From NCBI RefSeq assembly GCF_030013595.1, contig NZ_CP122769.1: DNA of 64,000 nucleotides. One strand, written 5' to 3'. How positions within the stretch are numbered: position 1 is the first letter of the stretch; each line of letters starts with the position of its first letter. Source of the DNA: Escherichia coli (GTDB lineage Bacteria; Pseudomonadota; Gammaproteobacteria; Enterobacterales; Enterobacteriaceae). The translations under genes were made by a program, and so were the position numbers. Below the pieces are notes generated by a model. That model was not told the origin of the DNA. It did no database searches and saw nothing but the letters and a program-made list of their open reading frames with translations. Below are positions 2,375 to 18,263 of the stretch, piece after piece.

Positions 2375-2431
2375 TCCTGTTAAGGGGGAACCCTAACGGG
2401 GCTTCTCTTTGAACAAATCGAGGAGCGGAAA

Positions 2432-2809
2432 ATGTCATATCTTGAATATATCAATGAAGTAAAAGTGTCCGGGATAGTTATCAGTGCTGTGGAGAAAAAA
2501 ATGACTGACCAGAGTATAGGTTTGTTAATAAAGCTCAAAAATAGGATGAAGACAGAAGTTGATGGTGAAATCACTGAGAGAGAATTTTCAGTTCAAATCA
2601 AGGTGTCGCCTGAAATGTATTCAACCTGTTTCACTGGTATAAATCAGGGTGATGAGTTGATGGTCTCCGGTTATATTGTTGTCGATACTATTATGATTGA
2701 AGGGAGAGAACATCCTCTTGACTACATGAGAGTGGTAGCAACAAGTAAGTTGGCTCACATACCTAAACCTCTAAAAGGTTTTGGACAAAGTAGCTTTAAT
2801 CAGATCTGA
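2432..2809 (+). CDS. hypothetical protein, possible OB-fold ssDNA-binding-like
   Basis: 125-aa ORF with RBS GAGGAGCGG upstream. Alternating beta-strand pattern (NEVKVSGIVIS ... EFSVQIKV ... ELMVSGYIVV) loosely resembles SSB OB-fold; assignment is weak. Confidence 0.4.
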   Translation: MSYLEYINEVKVSGIVISAVEKKMTDQSIGLLIKLKNRMKTEVDGEITEREFSVQIKVSPEMYSTCFTGINQGDELMVSGYIVVDTIMIEGREHPLDYMRVVATSKLAHIPKPLKGFGQSSFNQI

Positions 2810-2829
2810 CATTAAACCCACCCTAAAGG

Positions 2830-2860
2830 GGAGAAATCCCTTCATGGGATTTCTCCTTTT
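2830..2860 (+). terminator. intergenic stem-loop (11-bp perfect stem GGAGAAATCCC/GGGATTTCTCC, loop TTCAT) followed by TTTT
   Basis: Perfect inverted repeat read directly from sequence, T-run downstream, sits between stop of upstream ORF and RBS of next ORF. Confidence 0.5.
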
Positions 2861-2869
2861 GGAGTCCCC

Positions 2870-3847
2870 ATGAAACAAAAATTTAGGGCTACTGCAATAA
2901 GTAGTAATCAACTTAGTTTTTTTTCTATACTCGATATAGATGAAGATGAAATAACGCAAATAGTTGATTCACCCAAAGAGCATTTAAATGATGCTTACAC
3001 GTCCGGATTAAACTTTAAATCAGAAGAAAGTAACATTTCTGAGATAAATTATGATTCTGAAAGGCGTGAAAATCACCTTTATGAAAAATCCAAATTACTT
3101 AAAAATCAGATTTTGCATACAATTAATTTTGCAGCAGAAACAGATTATCTATATACGGTTGAAGAATATAACCCAGATTTGGGTGGTCTGGTAATAGAAT
3201 GGACCCCTGAGGATGTGTATGTTGTTTTTCTATCCGCTATGGAAGAGTCTTTGGAAATCATTAAAGAACTAGTGTTGAGGAGAAAGTTATTCTTCAAAGA
3301 TGACAATGGTAATATCACAGTGAATCCACTTTTAGAAGCTGAAACACGGTGGTATATGTCAAAATCATTTGAATACACTTGTTTATCTCATGGACTTGAT
3401 GCATGTGAATTTAGAGCGGAATTAAAATCATGGCTCTATTATCATTCGCATCGTTCGATTAGTGAAAACACGAAATTAGCTGAATGCAGGAATGATGATG
3501 AAATCATTTTGCATGATTGCAATGACGATATGGGCTGGGACATCTTCTTTGATCAGGATTATTTAATGTCAGAAAAAAAACTGGCTGTTAAATGGACTGA
3601 CAGGGAAATTATGGATGTTTACATAAAAGCTTTTAAATCCACATTAGAGTTGTTTGACGAGCTTGTTTCATGTGATCTGTTAACTAAACGAAACGCTTTT
3701 GGCAAGTTAGAAATCAATCCAATATTCGAAAATCATTTTGAATGGATCATGTCTGAAGCTTTTGAAATAGTGGGAAATCATCTTGGTTATAATGTGCCTC
3801 AAATCAGGAAACTGATGGCAACTATTTGCCAAATGAATCTCAAATAA
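2870..3847 (+). CDS. hypothetical protein
   Basis: 325-aa ORF, co-directional with neighbours, preceded by stem-loop and GGAG-like RBS. No recognisable motifs. Confidence 0.5.
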   Translation: MKQKFRATAISSNQLSFFSILDIDEDEITQIVDSPKEHLNDAYTSGLNFKSEESNISEINYDSERRENHLYEKSKLLKNQILHTINFAAETDYLYTVEEYNPDLGGLVIEWTPEDVYVVFLSAMEESLEIIKELVLRRKLFFKDDNGNITVNPLLEAETRWYMSKSFEYTCLSHGLDACEFRAELKSWLYYHSHRSISENTKLAECRNDDEIILHDCNDDMGWDIFFDQDYLMSEKKLAVKWTDREIMDVYIKAFKSTLELFDELVSCDLLTKRNAFGKLEINPIFENHFEWIMSEAFEIVGNHLGYNVPQIRKLMATICQMNLK

Positions 3848-3904
3848 AATGCCACTGGCAAACATCTGCCAGAGGGCGGTGTTTGCATTTTACCGGAGTT
3901 AAAA

Positions 3905-4963
3905 ATGTCTAATGCCGCTATGAAGTTAAATGAAACATCTTCTGATGCTTATGAAAAATTAGAAGCTCTTCTTTCCCCGGATGTTATAAAGTTAAAACAT
4001 TATGTGGATAAAGGTGAGTATCTTTTAGTTCTAGCAAAGGACCTTTTTGGTATTCCAGAAATGGATCCAAAGATGGCTGTGCCTGTTTTCAAAACTAAAA
4101 CCTCGTATCGAGCTCCGCTGAACAAAGACTACATACCAAATCCCCGAATACTTGAACAAGTGGTTAAACTGCTTATCAGTCCGGATATAGATTTAAGTGT
4201 GTGTCTTAAAGGTGAGTCCGGTTCTGGCAAGACTGAAATGGTAATGTACATTAGCCACATGATGAATTGGCCGCTGACAATTAAGCAGATCAACAGCAAT
4301 ATTCGAGTTGATGAGCTTGAAGGTGAGCGCAGTCTTAATGGTGGTAATACAGGTTTTGTACACAGCGATTTGGTAACGGGATTTCGTAATGGTCACCTCA
4401 TTCTTCTGGATGAAGTGGACAAAATCGATCCTGATACGGCAGCAAAACTTCACATGCCCATTGAACGTAAGCCCTGGTCACTCAGTGCTAATGGTGGTGA
4501 GGTTATAACTGCTAATGGCTACACGCGATTTATTGGTACTGCAAACACAAACATGAGTGGAGGCGCTCGCCGGTTCGTTTCTTCTCAACGTCAAGATGCA
4601 GCTTTTATAAAGCGGTTCTTGATAGTTGAAATGGAGAAGCCCGACAAAGTTGCTTTAACCAATGTGCTTACTAAACGATATAGCTCTTTGCCTTTTCAGG
4701 TCATTGAGAAGTTCGTAAGAGTAGCGATTGCAGTAAATGACTCTGGTACAGAAGACAGTGTGATGGATATTCGTCAATTAGTAGCTTGGGTTGGCACGTC
4801 GATGACGTTAAAAACCTTTAGTCTTCTTGACACTTTCAAAATAGCTTTTGCTTCTGCTTTACCTTTACATGTGGTCGATCTTGTTCTTCAAGCTATAGAT
4901 CTTTCTCTTGGCGAAGACAAGGATAAATCGCTGGAGTATTTCACAGCAAAAAAGTCGAGTTAG
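3905..4963 (+). CDS. AAA+ ATPase, MoxR/CobS-like
   Basis: Walker A GESGSGKT, Walker B HLILLDEVDK, downstream sensor-like FIGTANT; size and motif spacing typical of MoxR/CbbQ/CobS-type AAA+ proteins. Confidence 0.8.
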   Translation: MSNAAMKLNETSSDAYEKLEALLSPDVIKLKHYVDKGEYLLVLAKDLFGIPEMDPKMAVPVFKTKTSYRAPLNKDYIPNPRILEQVVKLLISPDIDLSVCLKGESGSGKTEMVMYISHMMNWPLTIKQINSNIRVDELEGERSLNGGNTGFVHSDLVTGFRNGHLILLDEVDKIDPDTAAKLHMPIERKPWSLSANGGEVITANGYTRFIGTANTNMSGGARRFVSSQRQDAAFIKRFLIVEMEKPDKVALTNVLTKRYSSLPFQVIEKFVRVAIAVNDSGTEDSVMDIRQLVAWVGTSMTLKTFSLLDTFKIAFASALPLHVVDLVLQAIDLSLGEDKDKSLEYFTAKKSS

Positions 4964-5094
4964 ATGGGATTTGTTATGAAACCTCTGATATTTGTATCTC
5001 AGAGTTATCCCATCTTGAATTTAGTGCGTTTTTAAGTACGGATGGTGCTGCTACCATTGCTATAGCAAAAAACGGAACTAATTTTACTGGACTT

Positions 5095-5268
5095 ATGCAA
5101 CTGAATAACGACTATTCTTTATTGTTTTATCATGATGGTAAAATAAATATGGAAGGTCTGATTAAACAAATGGAATTAAAAGGTTATATGTATCAGGGAG
5201 CAATGGGCAATGATGATGTTGTTGCTGAGTTTCCCGGTATTCTTTTAATTTCACCAGAGAAGCTTTAA
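5095..5268 (+). CDS. possible small ORF (57 aa) in otherwise unexplained 355-bp gap
   Basis: ATG..TAA ORF (MQLNNDYSLLFYHDGKIN...) ending immediately before a stem-loop cassette like those that follow other genes in the array. No RBS checked; speculative. Confidence 0.2.
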   Translation: MQLNNDYSLLFYHDGKINMEGLIKQMELKGYMYQGAMGNDDVVAEFPGILLISPEKL

Positions 5269-5280
5269 TATCAACCCTAT

Positions 5281-5320
5281 CGGGAAATCTTTCCCGTTGG
5301 GGAGGGTTTCCCCTTTTTTT
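5281..5320 (+). terminator. double stem-loop cassette (CGGGAAA-TCT-TTCCCG and GGGGAGGGTTTCCCC) followed by T7
   Basis: Two adjacent palindromes and a T-run read from sequence, immediately upstream of RBS GGAGAAACCC and ATG at 5319. Confidence 0.5.
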
Positions 5321-6458
5321 GGAGAAACCCATGACTTTAAATACTTCAATGCTTAACAAAGTATCTGCAAAACAAATCTCTGAGAATTTTGCAAAATCAT
5401 ATCCAGATTTACTGGAAGGTGCAGTTATAACAAAAATTGAAATAAGTGGCTGTCAAGGATCGCGTCGAACCGATAAAATCGATTTGTCTTATGATGGAGA
5501 TGATATTACGGATCAAAAAAGCGTATCTAAAAGCGAAGTACGCTGGATTGACATAAAAGCCCTTAGCTTCAAAAGTACGATTACCAGCAGAATATCAACT
5601 CTTTGCTCACGCTTGTGCATCCGCTATAGCAATATGTGGATTTTACCAGTATCCAGTATGGAAGAGTTTCTGGAAGGGGCCCAAGAGATTGAACGAGAGT
5701 TTCAGGCAGGTATTCAAAACGTTGTAGACAATTATGAGATGCATATTGAGGCTGAAAAAAATAGAAGCCCAAGAATGTCTTCTTTGATTGATCAGTTGAA
5801 ATTAACTAAAGATGATTTCATAAAATCCTTTAGATTTAATATTGCTCACTTTATTCCTTTTACGCCTATTAGCGTTGAAGGTGATGAAACCCAGGACTAC
5901 TATCAGGAACAATTGATAACAGATCTGGCAGAAGAAGCAATGAAGGTTTATGAAAAAATTAGCAAAAATAACAATTTGCGCTCAAGTACTATTGACCGAC
6001 TGAAGCAAATGCAAAATAAGATCATTAGCTTCATGTTTATACATAAAGAGGCGGCAGTACTTGCAGAAGCTATAAAACACATAATGAATAATTTACCTAA
6101 AGGTGCCATTTCTGAACCTCGCGACGTTGCGGTGTTACAGCAGTGGTTTTATTTCATGAGTGATGCTTCAATGTTAAAGCGTATTATTTCAGGAGAGCAA
6201 AAGGTTACTGACTGGTTGGAATCTATTACCAGATCATTTAATCAAAGCTCACAAACAGAACCGAACGCGCTACAGAACACAGGTATTGAAGCTATTTTAG
6301 ATTCAACAAATGTGTTCCAGGTTGAACCTGTCGTAGAGAACGATATAAATAACAGCACGTTTTCAAACACTGATCCTGTAGCTGAACCTGAGAAATCAGT
6401 TTCGCAACAGGAAGACAATGTTGAAAATTGTTTTGATATCGAGCTCAAAGGCTGGTAA
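5319..6458 (+). CDS. hypothetical protein
   Basis: 379-aa ORF between the AAA+ ATPase and vWA genes; no recognisable motifs. Position suggests it belongs to the same module. Confidence 0.5.
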   Translation: MEKPMTLNTSMLNKVSAKQISENFAKSYPDLLEGAVITKIEISGCQGSRRTDKIDLSYDGDDITDQKSVSKSEVRWIDIKALSFKSTITSRISTLCSRLCIRYSNMWILPVSSMEEFLEGAQEIEREFQAGIQNVVDNYEMHIEAEKNRSPRMSSLIDQLKLTKDDFIKSFRFNIAHFIPFTPISVEGDETQDYYQEQLITDLAEEAMKVYEKISKNNNLRSSTIDRLKQMQNKIISFMFIHKEAAVLAEAIKHIMNNLPKGAISEPRDVAVLQQWFYFMSDASMLKRIISGEQKVTDWLESITRSFNQSSQTEPNALQNTGIEAILDSTNVFQVEPVVENDINNSTFSNTDPVAEPEKSVSQQEDNVENCFDIELKGW

Positions 6459-6477
6459 CTGTTTGCTTTATTAAAAA

Positions 6478-6520
6478 CCCCAGATGGGTACTTCACCATC
6501 TGGGTGAGTACCCCTTTTTT
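6478..6520 (+). terminator. intergenic stem-loop with two mutually exclusive pairings followed by T6
   Basis: CCAGATGG/CCATCTGG and GGGTACTTCACC/GGTGAGTACCC alternative stems, then CTTTTTT; lies between stop at 6458 and ATG at 6536. Confidence 0.5.
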
Positions 6521-6535
6521 ATAAAGAGGTATTCT

Positions 6536-8554
6536 ATGAAATTAGATCTTAAATCATCACCGCGCCATATTAAGCGTTTACAGAATATAGCAAAAGTCAT
6601 TAGCGGCTTAGGCGATGTAAGAGTTGTAATAGACGACAATACCAAAGGACCGTATTTTGATCCTGTAAATAAAGTTTGTGTTTTACCAAACGGCGATTAT
6701 AGCGATGATGACTTTGTCAGTCTGATTGAAGGTTTTACCTGTCATGAAGCTGGTCATGGTCGCTATACCGACAGCGAGGTTTACAGTGACGCCTTTAATA
6801 GTGTTCTCAAGTCATCTGAAGGGTTTACACGCTTCGATGACGGAATGAATGCAGAGTTTGAGAGCCTCGCTGAGAAACGTAAAGCTTATAGCAGGGCAAA
6901 ACGTCTTACCGGGCTTATAAATCTGTTCGATGATGTACAGATGGAAGAGAAGGTTGGTAACGATTATCCGGATGCAAAGCGGCGGCTTGCAGCCACTTAC
7001 GCACTGATGGTTAAAGCCGGAAGGATGACTCCTGATATATCTTCTCGTCCGGAAAATCCTGTCCTATTTATTGAGTGGTATCTGCTTAACTCATTGCGAG
7101 TAAAAGTCCTTCAGCAGGCAGGTCACAAAGAAACACTCGATCCGTTTTTTGACTATGCCCAAAAGATACTTTCTCCAGTAATTTCTGATGTTGAGGAAAT
7201 TTTTCATGATGCTCTTGGTTGTGAAAATACTCAGGGCTGTGAATCCCTTGCTCGTAAGACCCTGGCTCTTTTAGAGAGACTGCGGGATGAGGCAAGGGAA
7301 CAACAGCAGCAGACAGAGCAGGAGGAGCAGGAGGCATATGATGAATCCGAGACCGAGACCGATACCGATACCGATACCGAATCAGAAGATAAATCGCTTG
7401 AGTCGACTGATAGTCGTGAGGATGATTCTGAGGACGATAGTGAAGGTCAGGCAGATACTTCCGATAACTCTGATCTTGCTCAAGAGGGATGTTCTGAGCC
7501 TTCAGAACTTGCTGAAGATAACGAGGGAAATAATGAACCCACCGGTGGCAATCCCACAGGTGATAACATTATTGAAGACGATACTGATGCGATTAACCCT
7601 TCCGAGAGTGAATCAGATGAAGCCAGTTCGACTAACGTTGAAGATGAAAGTAACTTTTCATCGGCTCAATGGGAGATACTGGCAGATTTGTTGGATGCCT
7701 TTCTTGGCAGTGATGAGGATAGCGAAGATTATCACGATGCTTTGGCTAAAGAGATTGAAGGTATTGCATCAAAAGTATCCGATGACGTGAAAGCCGAATT
7801 CGGTGCTTCTGAATGGGATATCCCTGATCTCCTTATCGATTTGAATGTTTACAATGAGGCTTTGTCTCTGAGTCATTCAATCGGTAGCGACTTGTCTGTT
7901 TTACAGCAGGTTAAAATGCGTGGCCGAAACAAAACTCATGAGCGTGGAATTACCTTCGATGGAAATCGATTAATTCTGTCACCAATGGGAGTTCGTGATG
8001 TCTTCAGAGCTCAAAGCGAATCTAAAAATAGAGGGCATGTTGGCCTCGTATTAGTTCGTGATATTTCAGCGTCAATGGCTAATGATGAAAGATATATTCA
8101 TGCCATTAAGTCAGATCTTGCTTTATCGATGGCCGCTGAAAGTTTGTCAAAAATGCATGTCTCCAATATAGTCTTTCCCTTCAAGGAAAGTGAATTTGAG
8201 ATTATCAAAACGTTTGATCAAAGCGTTGAGGAATCTCTATCGAAATTCACTCTTGGATGTAAGGGTTATTATACCCCTACGGGATCGGCTTTAATGGCAG
8301 CTGTTGATCTGTTACTTGACAGCCAATTCGATAGGAAAATAATTTTTCTTATAACTGATGGTTATCCGAATAAATCGGAATTTACTATCGGCGAAGTTAT
8401 GGAAAAGGCTAAATGTAATGGAATAGAAATCGTTGGTGTTGGTATTAAGACTGATGAAATAATTGGTTTTGAAACGGACACTTTCGTAACAGTTGATGAT
8501 ACTTCTTTATTGTCTATTGAAGTCAGTAAGCTAGTTCATCAAATACTTTCTTAA
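6536..8554 (+). CDS. von Willebrand factor A (vWA) domain protein, CobT-like, with N-terminal HExxH motif and central acidic low-complexity region
   Basis: C-terminal MIDAS-like motifs LVLVRDISASM and FLITDGYPN; N-terminal CHEAGHGRY (HExxH); central D/E/S/T-rich stretch including ETETDTDTDTESED encoded by hexanucleotide repeats. Confidence 0.75.
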   Translation: MKLDLKSSPRHIKRLQNIAKVISGLGDVRVVIDDNTKGPYFDPVNKVCVLPNGDYSDDDFVSLIEGFTCHEAGHGRYTDSEVYSDAFNSVLKSSEGFTRFDDGMNAEFESLAEKRKAYSRAKRLTGLINLFDDVQMEEKVGNDYPDAKRRLAATYALMVKAGRMTPDISSRPENPVLFIEWYLLNSLRVKVLQQAGHKETLDPFFDYAQKILSPVISDVEEIFHDALGCENTQGCESLARKTLALLERLRDEAREQQQQTEQEEQEAYDESETETDTDTDTESEDKSLESTDSREDDSEDDSEGQADTSDNSDLAQEGCSEPSELAEDNEGNNEPTGGNPTGDNIIEDDTDAINPSESESDEASSTNVEDESNFSSAQWEILADLLDAFLGSDEDSEDYHDALAKEIEGIASKVSDDVKAEFGASEWDIPDLLIDLNVYNEALSLSHSIGSDLSVLQQVKMRGRNKTHERGITFDGNRLILSPMGVRDVFRAQSESKNRGHVGLVLVRDISASMANDERYIHAIKSDLALSMAAESLSKMHVSNIVFPFKESEFEIIKTFDQSVEESLSKFTLGCKGYYTPTGSALMAAVDLLLDSQFDRKIIFLITDGYPNKSEFTIGEVMEKAKCNGIEIVGVGIKTDEIIGFETDTFVTVDDTSLLSIEVSKLVHQILS

Positions 8555-8625
8555 TAAACTCTACCCAATCGGGGCAAAAGGCCCCGGTGGGTCTTTTTGC
8601 TCCATGAAGGAATAAGGAGCAAAAT

Positions 8626-8847
8626 ATGACTCAGATAAAAACTTACCGTGTAGAACATGAAAAAGTCGGTGCGATGCATAAAGTCCGTATTTTCGGACGT
8701 GTTGGTGAAGTTATAAGCAATGATAGCCCTCAGGAAAGAATCTTCCGCGAAGTCACTATAGCGGAGGGTAATAGCCAGCAGGCTGCGTTACTTGTAGATA
8801 ACTACATACAGCGTCTTGAGAATAATGGCTTCACGACTGAAGCATAA
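8626..8847 (+). CDS. hypothetical small protein (73 aa)
   Basis: ORF with strong RBS AAGGAG upstream; no recognisable motifs. Confidence 0.4.
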   Translation: MTQIKTYRVEHEKVGAMHKVRIFGRVGEVISNDSPQERIFREVTIAEGNSQQAALLVDNYIQRLENNGFTTEA

Positions 8848-8852
8848 ATGTT

Positions 8853-8876
8853 GAGGGCCCCCGGGCCCTCTTTCTT
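8853..8876 (+). terminator. palindrome GAGGGCCCCCGGGCCCTC followed by TTTCTT
   Basis: Perfect GC-rich palindrome directly after the stop at 8847, followed by a T-rich run. Confidence 0.45.
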
Positions 8877-8960
8877 AAATTCTGCGTTGTGGGTTTCTCC
8901 CTGTCTTCTGCACCGCAGAAGGCATTGAGAAACTCACAATGCCAGATAAGAGAGATCATC

Positions 8961-10193
8961 ATGACTTATGCATCCCCGGCTCTTCGTCGTAATCCACAGG
9001 AAGTATCTGAACACTTTATTAAACTCGTTCATGCTCGAATTGCTGAAGTGTCTGGCTGGAAGTATATATTCGAAAGAATACCTGCTTTCAAAGACGCTTG
9101 TGCAAAAGCCCCGAGCCAGGTTCCTTGCCCGTTTACTGGCGCAGGGAAATCGAAGTTTCGTTTCCGACAAAAAGACCTTTATACCGGATGTGCGATCCAT
9201 AATGACTTTCCGGTAAATGAGTTTTGCGACGGAATTGATGTTCTGGCGAAATATTATGAATTAAGTAAAACGCAGACTTGCAAAAAGATTCTCTCAGATT
9301 TTTTCGGGATGGATCTGCATGCTCCGTTAACTGACGCCGACATTGAAAATGAACGACGCTATAAATCAGCAGTTCGTGCCACAGAAACTCTTGACCGAGA
9401 GGAAGTGGCAAAGCGAATGCGAAAACTTGATGTGATGTATCACTATACCGGTGAAATCAAGCCTAATACTCCTGTTGCTTTGTACCTCCGTAATCGTGGG
9501 ATCTCCCGCTTACTGAGTCACTTACCAAAGGATTTAGGCTTTAATAACCGGATCTACTATTGGGATAAAGATAAGCAGAAATCGATTATCTATCCGGGAA
9601 TGATTGCGATCTATCGTGACACCCGAGGTCGGCCTCTGACTATTCATAGAACATACGTAGACAAAAATGGTGATAAGGCACCTGTAGAAAATCCAAAGCT
9701 GATGATGAAGCCTCCTGCCGATATGACAGGTGGCTCAATTCAGTTGTTTGACCCTCACTATGATTCAGGTAGTTCGACCTGGACACTGGGAGTGGCTGAA
9801 GGGATCGAGAACGCGCTTTCTGTTGTAGAAGCGACTTCAACACCATGCTGGGCAGCCAGCTCCGCATGGTGCCTTGAAAACGTTACTGTTCCTGATTTTT
9901 TACTGCCTCCGCCGGATGTAAAATCTATAAACTTTTATATCTGGGCGGATAAGGATATTGCTAACTCACAAGGCACTCGTGCCGGTATTGAAGCTGCTCA
10001 GCGACTTCAAAGCCGCATGGTTGAGTTTTTGGCTAAACGATATCCCGCATCAAAGCTGACAATTGAAGTCTTCGAACCAGCACAAGATATTCCTGATGGG
10101 AAAAAGGGTATCGACTGGAACGATGTTCTCCAGTTAACAGGGCAGGATGGATTCCCGATTCACTGGGCTCCTGAATGTCTTAATCAGCTGTAA
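8961..10193 (+). CDS. Toprim-domain protein, putative primase-like
   Basis: Toprim-like motifs LGVAEGIENALSV (acidic E) and IWADKDIANSQG (DxD), Cys/His-rich N-terminus. Start chosen at ATG 8961 (MTYASP...); ORF extends to 8889 upstream. Confidence 0.55.
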   Translation: MTYASPALRRNPQEVSEHFIKLVHARIAEVSGWKYIFERIPAFKDACAKAPSQVPCPFTGAGKSKFRFRQKDLYTGCAIHNDFPVNEFCDGIDVLAKYYELSKTQTCKKILSDFFGMDLHAPLTDADIENERRYKSAVRATETLDREEVAKRMRKLDVMYHYTGEIKPNTPVALYLRNRGISRLLSHLPKDLGFNNRIYYWDKDKQKSIIYPGMIAIYRDTRGRPLTIHRTYVDKNGDKAPVENPKLMMKPPADMTGGSIQLFDPHYDSGSSTWTLGVAEGIENALSVVEATSTPCWAASSAWCLENVTVPDFLLPPPDVKSINFYIWADKDIANSQGTRAGIEAAQRLQSRMVEFLAKRYPASKLTIEVFEPAQDIPDGKKGIDWNDVLQLTGQDGFPIHWAPECLNQL

Positions 10194-10226
10194 CAACGAT
10201 AACTCCCCCGCTTTTTGCGGGGGGGG

Positions 10227-10270
10227 TTATCTTATCAATATTATATTTTAAAATTGTATTGATAAGATAA
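10227..10270 (+). promoter_or_regulatory. 14-bp perfect inverted repeat TTATCTTATCAATA / TATTGATAAGATAA separated by 16-bp AT-rich spacer; candidate operator
   Basis: Read directly from sequence; follows the hairpin CCCCCGCTTTTTGCGGGGG (10205-10227) inside a 270-bp ORF-free gap. Confidence 0.4.
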
Positions 10271-10463
10271 CCGCTTTCCTTCGTGATAATTACCTGCCTT
10301 TAAGGTCTTTTCACGGCTGAGATGCTTGCTCAGTTAAATAAATGTGCGGTACTACTGGCTATGGTCGGTTGTATGACATGGTTATTCCATAAACTATTAA
10401 AACCCATAACGGGAGTATTACCGTTATGGTGATGCTCGTCGTTTTACATCGGAGAGCATTTTA

Positions 10464-10985
10464 ATGAATTTTCAAATTAACGAAGTTTTTAATAAATTTG
10501 CTGCTGTTATAAAATCGCGCATCGTCAATGAACCATCGTCATGCTATTTGCTGCATGATAATGAGATAGATATAACGATTTTGAAACATAGCATATTAGA
10601 AAATGACAGAAACCTGTTGTACGTAGTTCGTCCTTCAGGAACGTGTTTGTTGCGTTGTGACAAATATTTCTATCCGAAATATTATCTTCGTTGCCGTGGA
10701 GATTATAAGTCATTCATATATGTCCATCTTGATCTACATAGTGGTGAAGCTAAAGAAATCACATGGGAGCAAGCAGACGATATGCTGTCTAGTCCAGGAA
10801 AACCCCCATTAAAAGGGAATCTTGGACGATTTGAGTATATAAAAGTTGTGGTTGAGGACCTTCGTATTCGAGGTTACGCTGATTATCTTCCTGCGTATAA
10901 TCTTGATGACCTTCGCCGTTTTGCCTTACAGGACGACCGCCCATCCCTTGTCAGATACATTGACAATGTCATGGCAACGGTCTGA
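10464..10985 (+). CDS. hypothetical protein
   Basis: 173-aa ORF with RBS GGAGAG upstream; no recognisable motifs. Confidence 0.45.
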   Translation: MNFQINEVFNKFAAVIKSRIVNEPSSCYLLHDNEIDITILKHSILENDRNLLYVVRPSGTCLLRCDKYFYPKYYLRCRGDYKSFIYVHLDLHSGEAKEITWEQADDMLSSPGKPPLKGNLGRFEYIKVVVEDLRIRGYADYLPAYNLDDLRRFALQDDRPSLVRYIDNVMATV

Positions 10986-11063
10986 TTGATTGCTAATTGA
11001 TTTACATATTTTCCCTGATGGCCAACCTGCATCAGGGAGGCCTCAATAACGAATGGAGGCTGT

Positions 11064-11942
11064 ATGAAGTTAGCTACGGACCTGGTAAAAGCTATTTTGA
11101 TTAGAAATGGCGTTGAACCAGTAAATATAAGCGAATCATCTAAGTTATCTTTGAAACAACCACTGACAGAACTTAAATTCAGTTTATATTTGCGAACTGA
11201 GCATTTATCTCACTTCCTACCCGGTTATGTTTATTCTATAAAAGAATGTCCACTGTCATATGACATCGGGATCGAAATTCAGAAAATCTTCGAAAGTTTA
11301 CATTTGTTAAACGAAGAATTTGAATCCCTCGGTTTTGTTTCTGTATGGATAGAAATGCATCAAAGCATTTTTGAACAAAGTCGGTTTAAGAAAAGTAACT
11401 TTACTTTTCGGGAGGAAGAGGTCGAGCTTGCTAAAGGGCTTGTTTGTTCTCACAATTCACAAATAAGTAATGCGGCTTATTTCTGGCTTCAGCACTTTGA
11501 GGAGTTTATGATTTATGTTCGTAATAAGCTTATCGACCTCTTTCGAGAGGCCTATGACCTGATCCTTGGAATGCAGCAAGTATTTTTCATTCGGGAAAAG
11601 GAAGAGCTGTTGAAAACTATAAGTTATGGCGATGAGCTGTATGAGGTGAAATTCATGGCGGCTGAGCTTTACTCTATCGAACAGAACTTAAAGTGTTCTG
11701 AATCGATAAGTACAAAATCTCAAGCTTCGGCATATATTAACCGCATCCGTGAGTTTGTGCGTTCGGGGTGGAGGCAGGGCTATATAGTCTGCCATCATAA
11801 GCGAAGTAATCAAATTTCATCATTGTCATTACCGATGTACTTGAAAGATACGTCAGGCCGAAGTGCTCGAAAGCGAGTAAAACGTCTTATATCTTCTACA
11901 GTTTGTGGTAGAAATAAAGATTTAGGTCTTACAGATTTTTAA
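11064..11942 (+). CDS. hypothetical protein
   Basis: 292-aa ORF with RBS GGAGG upstream, preceded by stem-loop CCCTGATG...CATCAGGG; no recognisable motifs. Confidence 0.45.
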   Translation: MKLATDLVKAILIRNGVEPVNISESSKLSLKQPLTELKFSLYLRTEHLSHFLPGYVYSIKECPLSYDIGIEIQKIFESLHLLNEEFESLGFVSVWIEMHQSIFEQSRFKKSNFTFREEEVELAKGLVCSHNSQISNAAYFWLQHFEEFMIYVRNKLIDLFREAYDLILGMQQVFFIREKEELLKTISYGDELYEVKFMAAELYSIEQNLKCSESISTKSQASAYINRIREFVRSGWRQGYIVCHHKRSNQISSLSLPMYLKDTSGRSARKRVKRLISSTVCGRNKDLGLTDF

Positions 11943-11960
11943 TTAAATTATACCCATGTG

Positions 11961-11996
11961 GGGATCACACCCCATATGGGAGTGATCCCTTTTTTT
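11961..11996 (+). terminator. stem-loop GGGATCAC...GTGATCCC with nested palindrome CCCATATGGG, followed by T7
   Basis: Inverted repeats and T-run read from sequence, between stop at 11942 and ATG at 12013. Confidence 0.5.
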
Positions 11997-12012
11997 ATTG
12001 AGAGAGGATCAC

Positions 12013-12948
12013 ATGAAAATTATCGAAAAAATCATTAATGCCTTTTTGGTTGTTCAACATAAAAAAATACAGGTTAAAAACATTACATTTTTAGACAATG
12101 GGCAGGGCATGTTCTCTGGTATGTCTTTTGATGCTGATGTTTCACTGGAGTTTATGTATGAATCAGCAAAAGCATATAGTTCTTGTTTCTTTGATATTCC
12201 CTTTCCAGGTTTTGAAGATGCAAATCTGGAGGAAATTACGAAATTTCAATTAGATGCTTTGAAGCAAAGAAAGAATCATTCTTTCTTTGTTAACCATTTG
12301 AGGTTTCCTATAGTTTTAAGGGAAGGGTGCAAAATCGAAAGAGGAGAAGTCTATTCAATTTCGAATTGCACTTATAATAAAGAAAGATTGCAGTATCTTT
12401 TTTCTCAGGATATTTACGGTAAGTTGTATAATTCCTTAGAGAAAGAATTAAGCTCGTTTTTCTCATTTATCAATGTTGAGGTGCACGAGTTGTTAAAAGA
12501 TGCTGTATGCTTTGCATTAAAAATCCTGAATAAGATATCTTTGGATACACCTGAAAGACTTATTAAAGCTTTTAATTATCGTGACTGGTATTGTAGTTAC
12601 GATGTTGAGCTTTTTAGGAAAGGCTTACCTGGTCATATTCTGGAAGAGCTCATTGCTCCAGATATCTTACTTTCAGACCTTAACGGTTGTAGAAAAATAC
12701 TTAGAAATGCAAAACGATTTCTAAATGGACATACACAAACCAATTGTGTTTATATTAAATATGAATGGTGGTTGGGGCCTGTTGATACCTCACACTCAGC
12801 TAAGTTGATGTCTGACAAAGAAATTAATAACCGAAGTGACTTGAAGAATTTTTCAAAGGTCTTTTTCAAAGAGTGTTTAAGTTCTGGTAAGTCGGAATAT
12901 GAAAACCATCTTAGTGAAAAAGAACATGCGCTTCGCTATAATTATTAA
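12013..12948 (+). CDS. hypothetical protein (~312 aa), first of a tandem array of similarly sized genes
   Basis: ATG at 12013 preceded by RBS GAGAGAGGA (the listed ORF starts at an upstream TTG). No recognisable motifs. Confidence 0.45.
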   Translation: MKIIEKIINAFLVVQHKKIQVKNITFLDNGQGMFSGMSFDADVSLEFMYESAKAYSSCFFDIPFPGFEDANLEEITKFQLDALKQRKNHSFFVNHLRFPIVLREGCKIERGEVYSISNCTYNKERLQYLFSQDIYGKLYNSLEKELSSFFSFINVEVHELLKDAVCFALKILNKISLDTPERLIKAFNYRDWYCSYDVELFRKGLPGHILEELIAPDILLSDLNGCRKILRNAKRFLNGHTQTNCVYIKYEWWLGPVDTSHSAKLMSDKEINNRSDLKNFSKVFFKECLSSGKSEYENHLSEKEHALRYNY

Positions 12949-13016
12949 TTAAAATTATTTTCTCCCATAGGGATTTCTCCCTATGGGAGAAATCCCTCTA
13001 TTAAGAGGGTATTGAA

Positions 13017-13688
13017 ATGAATGCTATACAAAAGTTAGTTGAATCTATTCTTGTTAAAATGGGTTTTGTTGGCGCTGTAGTGGAAAATATATATTTGGAT
13101 TCAAAACCATTTCGGCATATTCGATTTGTGGCTGATATTCCAGTAATATCTTTTCTACCTCATTTGGTGAAATATCTTAAGGGTGCAGACCATCTTTACA
13201 GTGGTAACGATGATTTGCATCCTCTTTTCATTTATTTTTCCGAAGCGGCTACATTAAAAGCAGGTCCTGTAAATCTCGCGAACTTTCGTTTTGAAGTTTC
13301 TATAGCTTCAACTCATTTACGACTGGTCTCAGAGCAGCCTGATTTGCTTTTCAAAGGATTTAACCGGGATAATCTAGAATACGTTTATTACCGCTCAGAT
13401 TTGGCCTCTAGGGATCTTATACTAGGCCTTGTTGAACACGGTTCTCCTTTCATAAAACATCTACATGGACTTATACAAAAGCGAATTTTAAACGAGTTCT
13501 CTCTGATTTTTTCTGTTCTTGAAAAGATTTTAGAAAGCGCGAAGCCACAAATTCTTGCTTGCTTCCATAGTGTTGATTATGAAATGAACGTAAAAATAAT
13601 AGCCGAAGCTATACCTGAAACTGTATCTAATCAGATAGTCACATCTGATTATATAGTTAATGTTAGCGCCAATGATATAAGACTGTAA
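13017..13688 (+). pseudogene. 5' part of a gene interrupted by the IS21-family element
   Basis: Stop codon TAA (13686-13688) lies inside the first bases of the IS end TGTAATTCGCC; the reading frame resumes in the same frame after the element (15787 onward). Confidence 0.5.
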
Positions 13689-13761
13689 TTCGCCATTTGG
13701 GTTGTCCGCTCCACCCAACATGTTGTTTCCTTGAGGTTCTCACACCAGAAAGGACATCGAC

Positions 13762-15731
<1,970 letters not shown>

Positions 15732-15786
15732 TCAAATAGCGGACATTAAAAATGGCGAAAACCGGCCATAAATCTTGGCGTTGACA

Positions 15787-16067
15787 TTAATTCTATATCA
15801 GATGCGGACAAGTTTATAAATCATGTTCGTCGCTATTTAGCAGGCAGGGTAATGAAGAGGCGGATATACGCTGAATTAGATGTTTGTGAAGAAACATCAA
15901 GTATTTCACTAGTGAACTTAGGATGCTTTACGTCTCCTCTGCTCGTTACGGAATATCAAATGTTTAAGCCACACTCTTCAGGGTTATATCGAAAAGCTAT
16001 AAACAACTCCTTAAAACAGTTCAAACCAGAAATGCATGTACCTTCTGAAGAACTCTTTTATAATTAA
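15787..16067 (+). pseudogene. 3' part of the gene interrupted by the IS21-family element
   Basis: Frame is open from the IS end to stop at 16067 and is the same frame (mod 3) as the 5' part; combined length about 316 aa, matching neighbouring genes. Confidence 0.45.
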
Positions 16068-16078
16068 TCTAACCCATC

Positions 16079-16115
16079 CGGGAACCTGCTTCCCGGTGGG
16101 AAGCACTTCCTTTTT
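16079..16115 (+). terminator. stem-loop cassette CCGGGAACCTGCTTCCCGG / GGGAAGCACTTCC followed by T5
   Basis: Inverted repeats and T-run between stop at 16067 and RBS/ATG at 16134. Confidence 0.5.
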
Positions 16116-16133
16116 AGTCATGAGGTAGTGTAA

Positions 16134-17072
16134 ATGTTTAAAGAATCTGACCACGTGGAATTTGTTAGTGCCTTTCTTTATCAAAATTTAGGCCTTAATG
16201 TTTCCGCTGACGATATAACCGTTCAATTATCTGATACTTCGTTCGACAAAGTAACCTTTGATTACGATGTAGATATCGATAATTTAAATTGTATGTTGGA
16301 TCTCTACATATCTGAGCTAATAAAGCACAACGCATCTTACTCCGATTCTATTCTTTTGAAACAAAAAATAATTTATTTTCTTGGAGTATTTAAGAATTTC
16401 GGATTTTTTACGTTTGATATTCGCGGATATAGTAATACTTTAAGCCCAGTTAAAGTTATTGATATTGTTTCAATGATTATTAATGACTGTGAAGAGTTAT
16501 CTAAAGCTAATTCTTCTACTGATGCTATAAGAAATCTTTATCTCGATAAAATGAAGGTGGATGGGAAAGTGTTAGTTGCGAAATTTGCACTTAAACAGTT
16601 TTTTCATTCCGACTTTGGTGACTTTATCTCATTTGTCGAGAAAAGAATTACAGATTGTCTTAATGAAACTTTAAGGATTATCAAAGCTGTTGAACATGGC
16701 TTTGTACGTGTAGGGCAGCATAAGATTAATCGCCGTATTAATGATGACTTAAAGTTATGCATTGATTTCAATACTGATGATTATCCGGCAAATATGCCAG
16801 ATATATATATTAAGTTTAACGATACATTTGATGGGAACGGGGCGTTATATTGTGACAATGATGCCCTCATATCCCTCTATACCGATGTTGCTTCAATTAT
16901 CAATGTGCCGGTGATGATGGAAGTAAGATTGATCAATAAAAGAGGGCGTGTTGTCTGTGATTCTTCGCATTCAACTTACGTATCTCTCGAAAGTAATGAC
17001 CGATACAGAGTAACTGATCGCACATTACTAATAACTGAAGCTTTTGACGATTTTCGTAACGCGTCTCAATGA
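16134..17072 (+). CDS. hypothetical protein, paralogue A of tandem pair
   Basis: 312-aa ORF with RBS GAGGTAGTG. Shares colinear blocks with next gene (KVLVAKFALKQFFHSDFGDFISFVEKRIT vs QVMIARFALQQFWDTHFIGLITFVSESIT; EAFDDFRN vs EVFDNLRN). Confidence 0.5.
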   Translation: MFKESDHVEFVSAFLYQNLGLNVSADDITVQLSDTSFDKVTFDYDVDIDNLNCMLDLYISELIKHNASYSDSILLKQKIIYFLGVFKNFGFFTFDIRGYSNTLSPVKVIDIVSMIINDCEELSKANSSTDAIRNLYLDKMKVDGKVLVAKFALKQFFHSDFGDFISFVEKRITDCLNETLRIIKAVEHGFVRVGQHKINRRINDDLKLCIDFNTDDYPANMPDIYIKFNDTFDGNGALYCDNDALISLYTDVASIINVPVMMEVRLINKRGRVVCDSSHSTYVSLESNDRYRVTDRTLLITEAFDDFRNASQ

Positions 17073-17237
17073 TCCTTTTGCTTCAGTCCAAAAAAGTAAC
17101 TTTGGTTGGCTGAAGACACTTGTCTATGACAATGTAAAATCTGTCGCTGGCATCTTCTTTTAGCTTAACCAAATTTTTATCTAACCCAGTGGGGAAGTCG
17201 CTTCCCTTCTGGGGCACTTCCTCTCAAATTCGAGGTA

Positions 17238-18200
17238 GTGTATATGACACATTCATCTGATGATAAAAACTATGTCCGAGCAGTTCTGAGTTATCTTGGC
17301 ATAGATTTTGATGAGGCGGATATAGTATTAAGTGTTTGCCATTGTCAAAGTGACGAGCTTTCTTTTACCTGTAATATCAAAGCTATTGAACTCAAGAATG
17401 CTGTTGATTTATATGTCGATAGTATCTCTGAGAATGAAATAGAAGCTTTAAACAGAGAATCTTTAAAATCGCGACTCTGTTACTTTCTTGAGGTGTTTGA
17501 CGCAGTCTCTGGTCAGTACCTTGAAATTTCAGGAAAACACTTTGCAACTAGTCGTTTTGAATATGATGATGTTTGTAGTGAAGTTCTTAGCATGTCTAAT
17601 GATGTTTCTCAGTCGAAAGGTTATGACCGGGATGAATATAACAGACTGATGCAGGTTGATGGTCAGGTTATGATTGCCCGTTTTGCTTTGCAACAGTTCT
17701 GGGATACTCATTTTATTGGACTAATAACATTTGTATCTGAGTCTATAACATCGAGCCTCTATAAAGCTTATGAAACTTTTAGTGATATTAGTTTGGCTTG
17801 CTATAAACTGAGTGAATATTCTTATTCACGCTCTATCAACAGTGAATTGACCCTTAATATTTCACTTAAAGAAAATGACTTCTGTGAGGACCTATCTGAT
17901 TGCTATATGGAAGATGAGGCTTTACCTTCTGGTAGGGTAATTTCTCGACGCAACAATGACTCCATAATAAGTATTTATGAGAGCTATGCTGCGGCTTCTT
18001 ATATTCCGATGATTGCATCTTTGGAAGTCGTTGATGAATACGGCGAAGTGGTTACTGACCTCTGCCATACCGTTTATGTTTCAGAGTTAACCGGTGGGCG
18101 GATTAAAATCCACGACCGTAATGACTTAGTATCTGAAGTTTTCGATAACCTAAGAAATTTAAATCTTGCAGTTGGAGATTCAGTTTCACAAGCTGCTTGA
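17238..18200 (+). CDS. hypothetical protein, paralogue B of tandem pair
   Basis: 320-aa ORF with identical RBS context (GAGGTAGTGTATATG); colinear similarity to 16134-17072 product. Confidence 0.5.
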   Translation: MYMTHSSDDKNYVRAVLSYLGIDFDEADIVLSVCHCQSDELSFTCNIKAIELKNAVDLYVDSISENEIEALNRESLKSRLCYFLEVFDAVSGQYLEISGKHFATSRFEYDDVCSEVLSMSNDVSQSKGYDRDEYNRLMQVDGQVMIARFALQQFWDTHFIGLITFVSESITSSLYKAYETFSDISLACYKLSEYSYSRSINSELTLNISLKENDFCEDLSDCYMEDEALPSGRVISRRNNDSIISIYESYAAASYIPMIASLEVVDEYGEVVTDLCHTVYVSELTGGRIKIHDRNDLVSEVFDNLRNLNLAVGDSVSQAA

Positions 18201-18239
18201 TTCTTTCCCTGATTTTGATTTTTTCTCACATACTCTTAT

Positions 18240-18263
18240 GGCACGGTTTCCGTGCCTTTTTTT
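18240..18263 (+). terminator. Rho-independent terminator GGCACGGTTTCCGTGCC + T7
   Basis: Perfect 7-bp stem with 3-nt loop followed by TTTTTTT, 40 bp after stop at 18200. Confidence 0.6.

Follow-up and report, generated by a model that had tools for sequence, protein, structure and literature searches.

Almost all gene junctions of a 15-gene, co-directional backbone array in an Escherichia coli IncHI2 plasmid carry a module of about 65 nt in which three mutually exclusive helices are predicted, and in which the ribosome-binding site (RBS) of the downstream gene is complementary to its own upstream sequence. The array lies in the 64-kb stretch of DNA analyzed here (contig NZ_CP122769.1; henceforth the window), with junctions J1 to J14 spanning 2.4–17.2 kb. 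The predicted helices are specific to the junctions that carry them, conserved in related plasmids, and restricted to the array, and the complementarity of the RBS to its own upstream is their most conserved and most array-specific property. We propose that these modules, referred to below as cassettes, are serial cis-acting two-state mRNA switches that would gate or couple translation gene by gene, a subset of them also acting as conditional terminators. On the modeled structures, we put the probability of this proposal at roughly 0.55.

When the junctions were compared with 200 dinucleotide shuffles each, 13 of the 14 folded more stably than the controls, with z-scores ranging from −1.8 to −9.3 (J1 −3.6, J2 −3.0, J3 −1.8, J5 −3.7, J6 −5.1, J7 −5.4, J8 −9.3, J9 −6.2, J10 −2.1, J11 −6.9, J12 −5.9, J13 −4.1, J14 −5.9). 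At 11 of 13 junctions, at most one shuffle in 200 folded as well, and a separate second folding run agreed. J4 (4964–5094) is not a typical cassette. These results bear out the first-pass annotation of the window, which had described palindromes with CCC...GGG cores at the junctions. The palindromes it quoted are present within 1 nt of the positions it gave: GGAGAAATCCC/GGGATTTCTCC at 2830–2856, CGGGAAATCTTTCCCG at 5281–5296, GGGATCAC/GTGATCCC at 11961–11989, TCTCCCATAGGGA at 12961, and CCGGGAACC, which begins at 16078 instead of 16079. Stem sequences differ strongly from junction to junction. The nested pattern CCC-N3-6-GGG-N4-12-CCC-N3-6-GGG matches seven times in the window, each time at a junction of the array; the whole 232-kb plasmid adds a single match, inside the GC-rich silP coding sequence, and none at any other intergenic site. 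The elements are thus non-random and confined to the array. Repetitive extragenic palindromes (REP), bacterial interspersed mosaic elements, and miniature inverted-repeat transposable elements (MITE) were considered and rejected, given stems that differ between junctions and a pattern found only in the array save for one chance match in a coding sequence. A search of the window against Rfam 15 returned no match at the gathering score.

The plan of the cassette was derived by setting the junctions beside their orthologues in an IncHI1 plasmid (about 73% nucleotide identity). Each cassette consists of five segments in the order a-b-a'-b'-c. Segments a and a' form hairpin A, whose arms have the form CCC-x-GGG, which explains the CCC...GGG cores noted earlier. 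Segment b is located at the 3' end of a and within the loop of hairpin A; b', which follows a', is pyrimidine- and U-rich and includes the T-run where there is one; c is the Shine-Dalgarno (SD) sequence together with the spacer to the AUG of the downstream gene. Since b' is complementary both to b, giving the terminator-like hairpin B, and to c, giving hairpin C, each of b and c is nearly a copy of the other. The likeness is seen in GGGATCAC and GGATCAC at J11, GGGGCAAAAG and GGAGCAAAAT at J7, and GGAGAAA and GGAGAAAC at J2/J5. An AU-rich spacer precedes each cassette, and the position of the cassette is fixed relative to the downstream AUG and not to the upstream stop codon, J9 and J14 included.

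In the unconstrained minimum-free-energy fold, hairpins A and C form together and the RBS is masked at J5, J6, J7, J9, J10, J11, J12, J13, and J14. Hairpin B was obtained by blocking the 5' part of a plus the RBS. A and B have no pair in common, the 5' arm of B using bases that are paired in A, and the 3' arm of B typically shares 7–9 nt with the 5' arm of C (range 4–9 in the IncHI2 plasmid). The two hairpins are often nearly iso-energetic, with energies for A and B of −19.9 and −19.7 kcal/mol at J11, −20.9 and −20.7 at J7, and −17.2 and −17.2 at J13. The mutually exclusive pairings that had been pointed out at three sites are real, and they are general to the array. Hairpin B was more stable than expected from a shuffled b' region (p < 0.05) at 10 of 11 junctions in the IncHI2 plasmid and at 8/11, 8/10, 5/6, 6/6, and 4/4 junctions in the other lineages, with Fisher-combined p values of 1e-6 to 1e-11.

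The earlier description of the hairpins stood, yet it had missed that the 3' arm of the terminator-like hairpin complements the SD/start region of the next gene and that the 5' arm mimics that region. We measured this complementarity as the duplex energy between the last 19 nt (SD to AUG) and the gene's own upstream 60 nt, compared with the upstreams of the other junctions. Cognate duplexes had energies of −12.3 to −14.4 kcal/mol and non-cognate ones −7.9 to −9.4 kcal/mol, with a permutation p ≤ 5e-5 in each of five lineages; the values for the array in the IncHI2 plasmid are −12.4 and −9.3 kcal/mol. No cognate advantage was found for 116 genes outside the array on the same plasmid (+0.2 to +0.4 kcal/mol), taken from the ter region, from Tra2/par, and from 40 kb of small genes, and array and control genes differed in this respect with a Mann-Whitney p of 2.4e-5. 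The C and B pairings were lost when shuffling was limited to the upstream part or to the b' region. Fisher-combined p values were 1e-3 to 1e-6 for b':c alone and 1e-6 to 1e-9 for the b/b'/c triple. Hairpin C reaches −8 kcal/mol or below at 8/11 (IncHI2), 9/11 (IncHI1), 8/10, 6/6, 6/6, and 4/4 junctions of six lineages. Taken together, the cognate specificity, the same-plasmid controls, and the shuffling indicate that masking of the RBS is more than a purine-pyrimidine coincidence.

Two other functions have to be weighed against these properties. The cassettes could be modules for mRNA processing and stability, the AU-rich spacer being an RNase E site and the GC-clamped hairpins protecting 3' and 5' ends, so that each cistron would have its own half-life. 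Hairpins that stabilize mRNA between cistrons are well established elsewhere (REP of malEFG, the puf operon), and an AU-rich spacer followed by a stable, CCC/GGG-clamped hairpin is indeed what each cassette displays. Such a role would be compatible with a switch and could coexist with it. As the explanation of the cassettes, however, we think it distinctly unlikely, for it accounts neither for the complementarity of b' to the cognate SD and start, nor for the mimicry of c by b, nor for anchoring to the downstream AUG instead of the stop codon. The cassettes could also be binding platforms for a trans-acting RNA-binding regulator, either CsrA or a plasmid-encoded protein, that represses by occupying the GGA in b and the GGA in the SD as a pair of sites. 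In eight of nine core cassettes, b has GGGA or GGGGA at the stem-loop boundary of A, about 35–40 nt from the SD-bearing c, a spacing within the range bridged by CsrA dimers. The likeness between b and c nevertheless extends well past GGA, and their shared complementarity to b' explains it in full; the loops have no sequence in common, and no recognizable RNA-binding protein is found among the array genes; we regard this explanation as very improbable.

The array is syntenic in five further lineages and occurs in IncHI1, IncHI2, and IncHI1B-replicon ("HI3-like") backbones. The related lineages are IncHI1 (L002); a Citrobacter/Klebsiella grimontii/Pseudocitrobacter lineage (L003, L005, L009); the HI3-like IncHI1B/IncFIB plasmid pPMK1-NDM (L004); pHN-10 (L007); and a K. 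grimontii contig (L010). In L004, L007, and L010, the proteins are only about 35–45% identical to those of the window, and orthologous junctions have the same A/B/C architecture with different sequences. The HI3-like orthologue of J2, for instance, has the triple GGGAGAAA (b), GGGTTTCTCC (b'), and GGAGAAACC (c). At J11, all three segments change in concert between IncHI2 and IncHI1, b from GGGATCAC to GGGATTAC, b' from GTGATCC to GTAATCC, and c from GGATCAC to GGATTAC. At J5, an inserted T in b' is matched by an inserted A in c; helix C of this junction has five compensated pairs across six lineages (RNAalifold and pair counts), and its covariation score is 0.291, compared with 0.206 in shuffles (0/500 as high) and 0.03–0.15 in slid controls. 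L010 shows a G-C to A-T compensation in hairpin C of J7, where the RNAalifold consensus is A + C in all six sequences. At J9, it is hairpin B that emerges as the consensus; four of its pairs are compensated across six lineages, and its score is 0.477 versus 0.294 (1/500).

Because insertions and deletions shift the register of segment c in MAFFT alignments, in which column-wise analysis gave 29 compensated cells and many apparent breaks, we relied on alignment-free arm swaps. Exchanging arms between IncHI1/2 and HI3-like plasmids made C less stable than its native form in 51 of 51 cases (native −15.5, chimeric −10.9 kcal/mol); segments were set by position only, so that this comparison carries no selection bias. 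For A and B, the native combination was better in 38 of 38 cases, although these arms were taken from their own folds, which favors native pairs. A structure-fitted, N-padded alignment of 46 cassettes was not used, as pairs taken from each cassette's own fold make covariation circular. In a 99%-identical Enterobacter IncHI2 plasmid, junction differences fall mostly in loops, spacers, and T-run length. Between near-identical plasmids, T-runs differ in length at J5 (5313–5319; 7 T versus 8 T in NZ_CP117034.1) and at J11 (11990–11996; 7 T versus 6 T in an Enterobacter IncHI2 plasmid). The slippage affects a homopolymer that serves both as the loop of hairpin C and as the U-tract of hairpin B. A scan of a genome collection for distant arrays gave two loci, one with junctions identical to those of L005, the other a further HI3-like variant.

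A distant homologue of the AAA-DUF3150-VWA-toprim genes, in Aeromonas media pAeme5 (L008), shows no cognate RBS masking (p = 0.87), so that the proposed switch would belong to IncHI-type arrays and not to the gene family. That array has a different, sequence-conserved junction element, AATCCTTCGGGATATGACGCCTTCGGGCA, in seven + strand copies at 7626, 9987, 15163, 15807, 17411, 17911, and 18480; these form small UUCG-type tetraloop hairpins upstream of genes and leave the RBS unpaired.

Folding of the cassettes favors the sense over the antisense strand by a mean of 2.2 kcal/mol (34 of 53 cases; Wilcoxon p = 2e-4, and p = 0.005 for IncHI2 alone). Together with the fixed position relative to the downstream AUG, this indicates that they are mRNA elements, as the first-pass annotation had suggested among other readings. 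One of those other readings, structures active on single-stranded DNA (ssDNA) early in conjugative transfer, is not supported by the map of the plasmid: mobI and the MobH relaxase gene, and hence the origin of transfer (oriT), lie at 158–163 kb, and the array, at 40.5–57.3 kb beside trhI, is more than 100 kb away. It is thus not in the leading region, and a role in leading-region ssDNA is unlikely; ssi- or Frpo-type elements of such a region, which sit beside oriT on the side transferred first, were rejected on the same ground. More broadly, DNA elements of some kind, whether ssDNA hairpins (ssi sites, single-strand promoters), REP or MITE repeats, or integron attC sites, would be in keeping with one structured element per co-directional, mostly uncharacterized gene, as in an integron cassette array, with the primase-like gene inside the array, and with a tyrosine recombinase about 5 kb downstream. 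Core sites of attC, R'' (RYYYAAC) and R' (GTTRRRY) in inverted order, are however present at 0 of 14 junctions, and the recombinase is a weak XerC-like match (17 bits; cut-off 335), not an IntI, so that no IntI is adjacent. With elements that are anchored to SD and AUG, fold better on the sense strand, vary in sequence by junction, lack an Rfam match, and are missing elsewhere in the plasmid, we consider a DNA-level function extremely improbable.

A stronger competitor is transcription termination. The cassettes might each be a Rho-independent terminator or leaky attenuator, one per gene, that sets up a transcriptional gradient, and the RBS pairing might be a by-product of U/C-rich 3' arms meeting a purine-rich SD. 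GC-rich stem-loops, a trait of intrinsic terminators, are present at the junctions; attenuator-type alternative pairings exist, as had been anticipated; and about half of the IncHI2 junctions have a hairpin and T-run that could terminate. A consensus scan found 29 terminator-like sites in 1–20 kb, where 15.4 ± 3.6 were expected, J5, J7, J8, and J13 among them. At 6 of 11 junctions, at least 5 of the 8 nt that follow hairpin B, or A in the case of J7, are T, with at least 6 T after the hairpin at J5, J6, and J11. The earlier remark that a T-run often follows the palindrome holds for no more than these 6 of 11 junctions in the IncHI2 plasmid, and only 2 of 11 junctions have one in IncHI1, where C is at −8 kcal/mol or below in 9 of 11; the corresponding counts of hairpin A or B plus T-run are 6/10 in L005 and 3/6 in L004. 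T-runs have been lost at orthologous IncHI1 junctions while RBS pairing was kept, which speaks against simple per-gene termination as the conserved function. Termination would accordingly be at most secondary and lineage-variable, RBS masking being what is conserved. Nor does a by-product explain why RBS complementarity is cognate-specific, reaches into the SD-AUG spacer, and covaries. In addition, B is absent from the predicted ground state and would be outcompeted by A co-transcriptionally. The array's true terminators, at 10203–10225 and 18240–18256 (followed by T7), likely the ends of transcription units, look unlike the cassettes: each is a single hairpin with a long T-run and no RBS pairing. 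On balance, termination as the principal function is unlikely.

The two-state switch that we favor over these explanations would work as follows. In the OFF state, the predicted ground state, the CCC/GGG-clamped hairpin A would form first during transcription and trap b; b' would then be free to pair with c from SD to AUG, and hairpin C would mask the RBS. In the ON state, A would be prevented from forming or opened, b would pair with b' in hairpin B, and the RBS would remain free as long as B holds b'. As a near copy of c, b would thus act as an anti-anti-SD. Estimated direct-path barriers are 18–32 kcal/mol from A + C to B and 5–20 kcal/mol in the reverse direction, from which the OFF state should not open spontaneously and B, once formed, should persist for a while. 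Switching in vivo, with upstream translation as its trigger, is our inference. The most likely opener of A would be the ribosome finishing the upstream gene, in which case translation of gene n would license gene n+1, a coupling by RNA unfolding, with hairpin B, about as stable as A, serving as a latch against refolding. Where a U-tract follows B (or A in J7), the same choice of helices could yield conditional intrinsic termination. Alternatively, an RNA-binding factor acting in trans, processing by an RNase, or, in the long spacers, the choice of promoter may be involved.

Several observations weigh against this proposal. All cassette structures are thermodynamic predictions, and state B appeared only under imposed constraints. 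The SD window is less often unpaired in the array than in the control genes, in line with masking, but the difference, a probability of 0.33 versus 0.45 (p = 0.016), is moderate. The sequences behind the covariation, six per junction, effectively represent two deep clades and their sub-lineages, so that its statistics are supportive but modest. For a terminating ribosome to open A, the distance from the stop codon matters: the first base of A lies within 12 nt of it at 7 of 11 IncHI2 junctions and at only 2 of 6 HI3-like ones, the distance is 20 nt at J6, and the cassettes of J9 and J14, anchored to the downstream start, stand 210 and 112 nt past the upstream stop. Finally, J3, J4, and J10 fit the scheme poorly.

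The most far-reaching form of the switch would be a self-propagating translational relay, in which each junction is a bistable latch flipped only by the ribosome that completes the previous gene. This we regard as possible but doubtful. Were it to hold, translation would run through the 15 genes in sequence and be all-or-none, transcripts from spurious internal promoters in AT-rich DNA would stay untranslatable, and hairpin B would keep the RBS open once the ribosome has gone, answering the objection that the RNA should refold.

Short open reading frames (ORFs) within the cassettes were considered as leader peptides. There are 35 ATG-initiated mini-ORFs, of which 10 end −3 to +1 nt from the main ATG, eight of the 35 as an ATGA overlap. 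One example, at J2, is MGFLLLESP (2844–2873), whose TGA stop overlaps the main start as ATGA; others occur at J2, J7, and J11 of L005, J9 of IncHI1, and J6 of L004 and L007. Segment a' often reads NTG-GGN because of the CCCA/TGGG clamp. As presence, frame, and stop position vary between lineages, a leader peptide was rejected as a conserved mechanism. The mini-ORFs may be incidental, and termination-reinitiation through those that overlap in ATGA may be a minor point.

The individual cassettes, all on the + strand, are laid out as follows. J1 (2375–2431; start codon 2432) has A at 2376–2400, B at 2383–2410, and C at 2401–2426, the last through a GCTTCTC:GAGGAGC pairing that is retained in IncHI1 in a shifted register. 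J2 (2810–2869; start codon 2870) contains the 11-bp hairpin GGAGAAATCCC/GGGATTTCTCC at 2830–2856, followed by TTTT; its outer pairs reach 2820–2865, and CTCC pairs with the GGAG of the SD. J3 (3848–3904) has mutually exclusive, iso-energetic hairpins A (3851–3877) and B (3858–3886, then ATTTT), with energies of −17.8 and −17.4; its RBS masking is weak, and its z-score of −1.8 is the weakest of the set. In J5 (5269–5330; start codon 5331), A lies at 5275–5302, B at 5282–5312, followed by T7, and C at 5304–5330, with the pairing GGGTTTCCCC:GGAGAAACCC. J6 (6459–6535; start codon 6536) has A at 6479–6504, B at 6486–6513, followed by T6, and C at 6506–6534 (GAGTACC..TTT:AAAGAGGTATTC), and its B exceeds the shuffled b' region with p = 0.003. 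In J7 (8555–8625; start codon 8626), it is A (8563–8592) that is followed by a T-run, CTTTTTG; B, at 8571–8603, pairs GGGGCAAAAG with CTTTTTGCTCC, and C, at 8595–8624, pairs TTTTTGCTCC with GGAGCAAAA.

J8 (8848–8960; start codon 8961) has a different layout. A terminator-like hairpin at 8853–8870, which shows compensated changes across lineages, is followed by a U-tract (about 8869–8877) that pairs with the AAGAGAG RBS region (about 8946–8956) of the toprim gene, and this pairing encloses a long, highly conserved hairpin at about 8881–8945. The long hairpin, CTGCGTTGTGGGTTTCTC...GAGAAACTCACAATGCCAG, in a junction with a z-score of −9.3 overall, is found unannotated at about 83% nucleotide identity in many Klebsiella/Raoultella plasmids, where the flanking proteins are only about 40% identical. 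This suggests, from sequence conservation, that it may have an independent function, for example as a small RNA, a primase-related element, or a leader.

Directly after the toprim gene, the GC-rich, terminator-like hairpin at 10203–10225 (z = −6.5; conserved in IncHI1) is not a switch cassette and probably ends the first transcription unit. Immediately behind it, a perfect AT-rich inverted repeat, TTATCTTATCAATA...TATTGATAAGATAA (10227–10274), heads a spacer of 270 nt, the probable location of the second unit's promoter; the repeat could be an operator or protein-binding site. In J9 (10395–10463; start codon 10464), A lies at 10404–10429, B at 10413–10437, and C, with the pairing GATGCTC:GAGAGCAT, at 10431–10460. 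J10 (10986–11063) has A at 11012–11038 and C at 11039–11061 (GGCCTC:GAGGCT), with B weak or not distinct. J11 (11943–12012; start codon 12013), with the segments b, b', and c given above, is the clearest case: A lies at 11953–11980, B at 11960–11990, followed by T7, and C at 11982–12012. J12 (12949–13016; start codon 13017) has A at 12959–12992, B at 12969–12997, and C at 12994–13009 (CCCTCT:AGAGGG). In J13 (16068–16133; start codon 16134), A lies at 16073–16100, B at 16080–16111, followed by a T-run, and C at 16103–16131 (GCACTTCC:GAGGTAGTGT). J14 (17175–17243; start codon 17244), a paralogue of J13, has A at 17185–17213, B at 17192–17222, and C at 17214–17241. The array closes with a canonical intrinsic terminator on the + strand at 18240–18263, GGCACGG TTT CCGTGCC followed by T7 (z = −3.8), which is conserved in IncHI1.

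The IncHI2 plasmid NZ_CP117034.1 of Salmonella enterica matches the window at 100% identity, and most of the region is present in more than 1,000 plasmid records. The complete plasmid, assembled from six pieces, is a 232-kb IncHI2 circle. The co-directional array begins directly downstream of the Tra2 gene trhI with three hypothetical genes, followed by a CobS-like AAA ATPase (3905–4963), a small ORF, a DUF3150 gene (5331–6458), a CobT-like VWA protein (6536–8554), a 73-aa ORF, a primase-like toprim protein (8961–10193), a 173-aa ORF, and five genes of about 300 aa each (11064–18200), which include old tandem paralogues. With the ATPase, DUF3150, VWA, and toprim genes among them, the array genes are not all orphans, as they had been called. 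A PADLOC run on the array proteins gave no defense-system assignment. Elsewhere in the window are a tus-like gene, the gene for the tyrosine recombinase, hha, the ter operons, and a Tn7-like element.

The genes at 16134–17072 and 17244–18200 are tandem paralogues with 28% identity over their full length, and the cassettes upstream of them, J13 and J14, are visibly homologous, which indicates that part of the cassette series arose by duplication of gene plus cassette. Another of the ~300-aa paralogues is split into 13017–13688 and 15852–16067 by an IS21-family element at about 13689–15800 (istA 13762–14934, istB 14934–15731). The insertion is missing from most related plasmids (query coverage 87%), and a second, identical istAB pair lies at record positions 181118–183087 of the plasmid.

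IncHI plasmids rank among the main carriers of resistance genes, mcr-1 and NDM included, and the array is part of their conserved backbone. If our proposal is right, the array would offer a natural, repeated three-helix coupling switch in about 50 natural variants, well suited to testing the disputed RNA-unfolding model, and could show how an opened RBS stays open after the upstream ribosome leaves. It might also explain how an operon that is large, AT-rich, H-NS-prone, and of horizontal origin escapes spurious expression, and the ~65-nt cassette would make a compact part for synthetic operons that need strict coupling of cistrons.

Sequestration of the RBS, coupling by unfolding, and attenuation of the erm/cat and trp types are all already known. 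We could not find a description, in the literature searched, of an SD mimic/anti-SD/SD module of this size at ten or more consecutive junctions of one backbone array and with no leader peptide; searches of the literature on junction hairpins or operon structure of IncHI/R27 plasmids gave nothing relevant, and Rfam nothing similar. Among known systems, integron attC sites resemble the cassettes in placing one imperfect palindrome after each gene of a co-directional, mostly uncharacterized array. In contrast to attC sites, the cassettes have neither R''/R' cores nor an integron integrase. They are also shorter and linked to the RBS that follows, and the plasmid backbone keeps them in synteny and conserves them vertically. 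In RNA thermometers of the fourU/ROSE type, a helix of marginal stability between the SD and a U-rich strand melts at 30–42 °C; in the predicted folds of the cassettes, the U-rich b' pairs with the SD, and C hairpins of −8 to −16 kcal/mol are more stable than typical thermometers. In phage T4 genes e, soc, and I-TevI, the RBS is occluded by upstream RNA in long transcripts, and the RNA species or conformation decides whether it can be translated. Occlusion by upstream RNA is common to both systems, and the parallel may be relevant to J9 and J14, in long spacers that might hold promoters. Relief in T4 comes from a promoter inside the hairpin, whereas no promoter was detected inside the array cassettes.

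The attenuators of trp and pyrBI share with the cassettes an antiterminator, here A, that excludes a terminator-like hairpin with a U-tract, here B, and a choice that the position of an upstream ribosome could make. They differ in that the array has a U-tract at only about half of its junctions, and poorly conserved, that it has no leader peptide, and that the 3' arm also masks the next RBS. The logic of A, B, and C matches more closely that of the ermC, cat, and cmlA leaders, in which a chain of exclusive helices sequesters the SD and start in the ground state and disruption of the first helix frees them; in the cassettes, too, the SD is masked in the predicted ground state. Those leaders use a dedicated leader peptide and drug-dependent stalling, whereas the array has no conserved mini-ORF and its sensor would be a full-length gene.

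Coupling by unfolding, as in E. coli rpmI-rplT, the atpH-atpA "conformational switch", and MS2 coat-lysis/replicase, shares with the array an RBS buried by upstream sequence and upstream translation as the proposed opener. The array differs from these systems in repeating its module at ten or more consecutive junctions, in having the masking strand in the intergenic spacer and not in the upstream ORF, and in that, at several junctions, a terminating ribosome would not reach the start of the first hairpin. For rpmI-rplT, the RNA-unfolding model is established with a spacing of +52 nt, comparable to the 57–78 nt of the array, and rapid refolding after departure of the ribosome has been named as the model's kinetic weakness (PMC12548453). 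It is here that the third helix of the array, B, in which the SD mimic pairs with the anti-SD as an explicit alternative state, sets it apart, for a latch of this kind would address that weakness.

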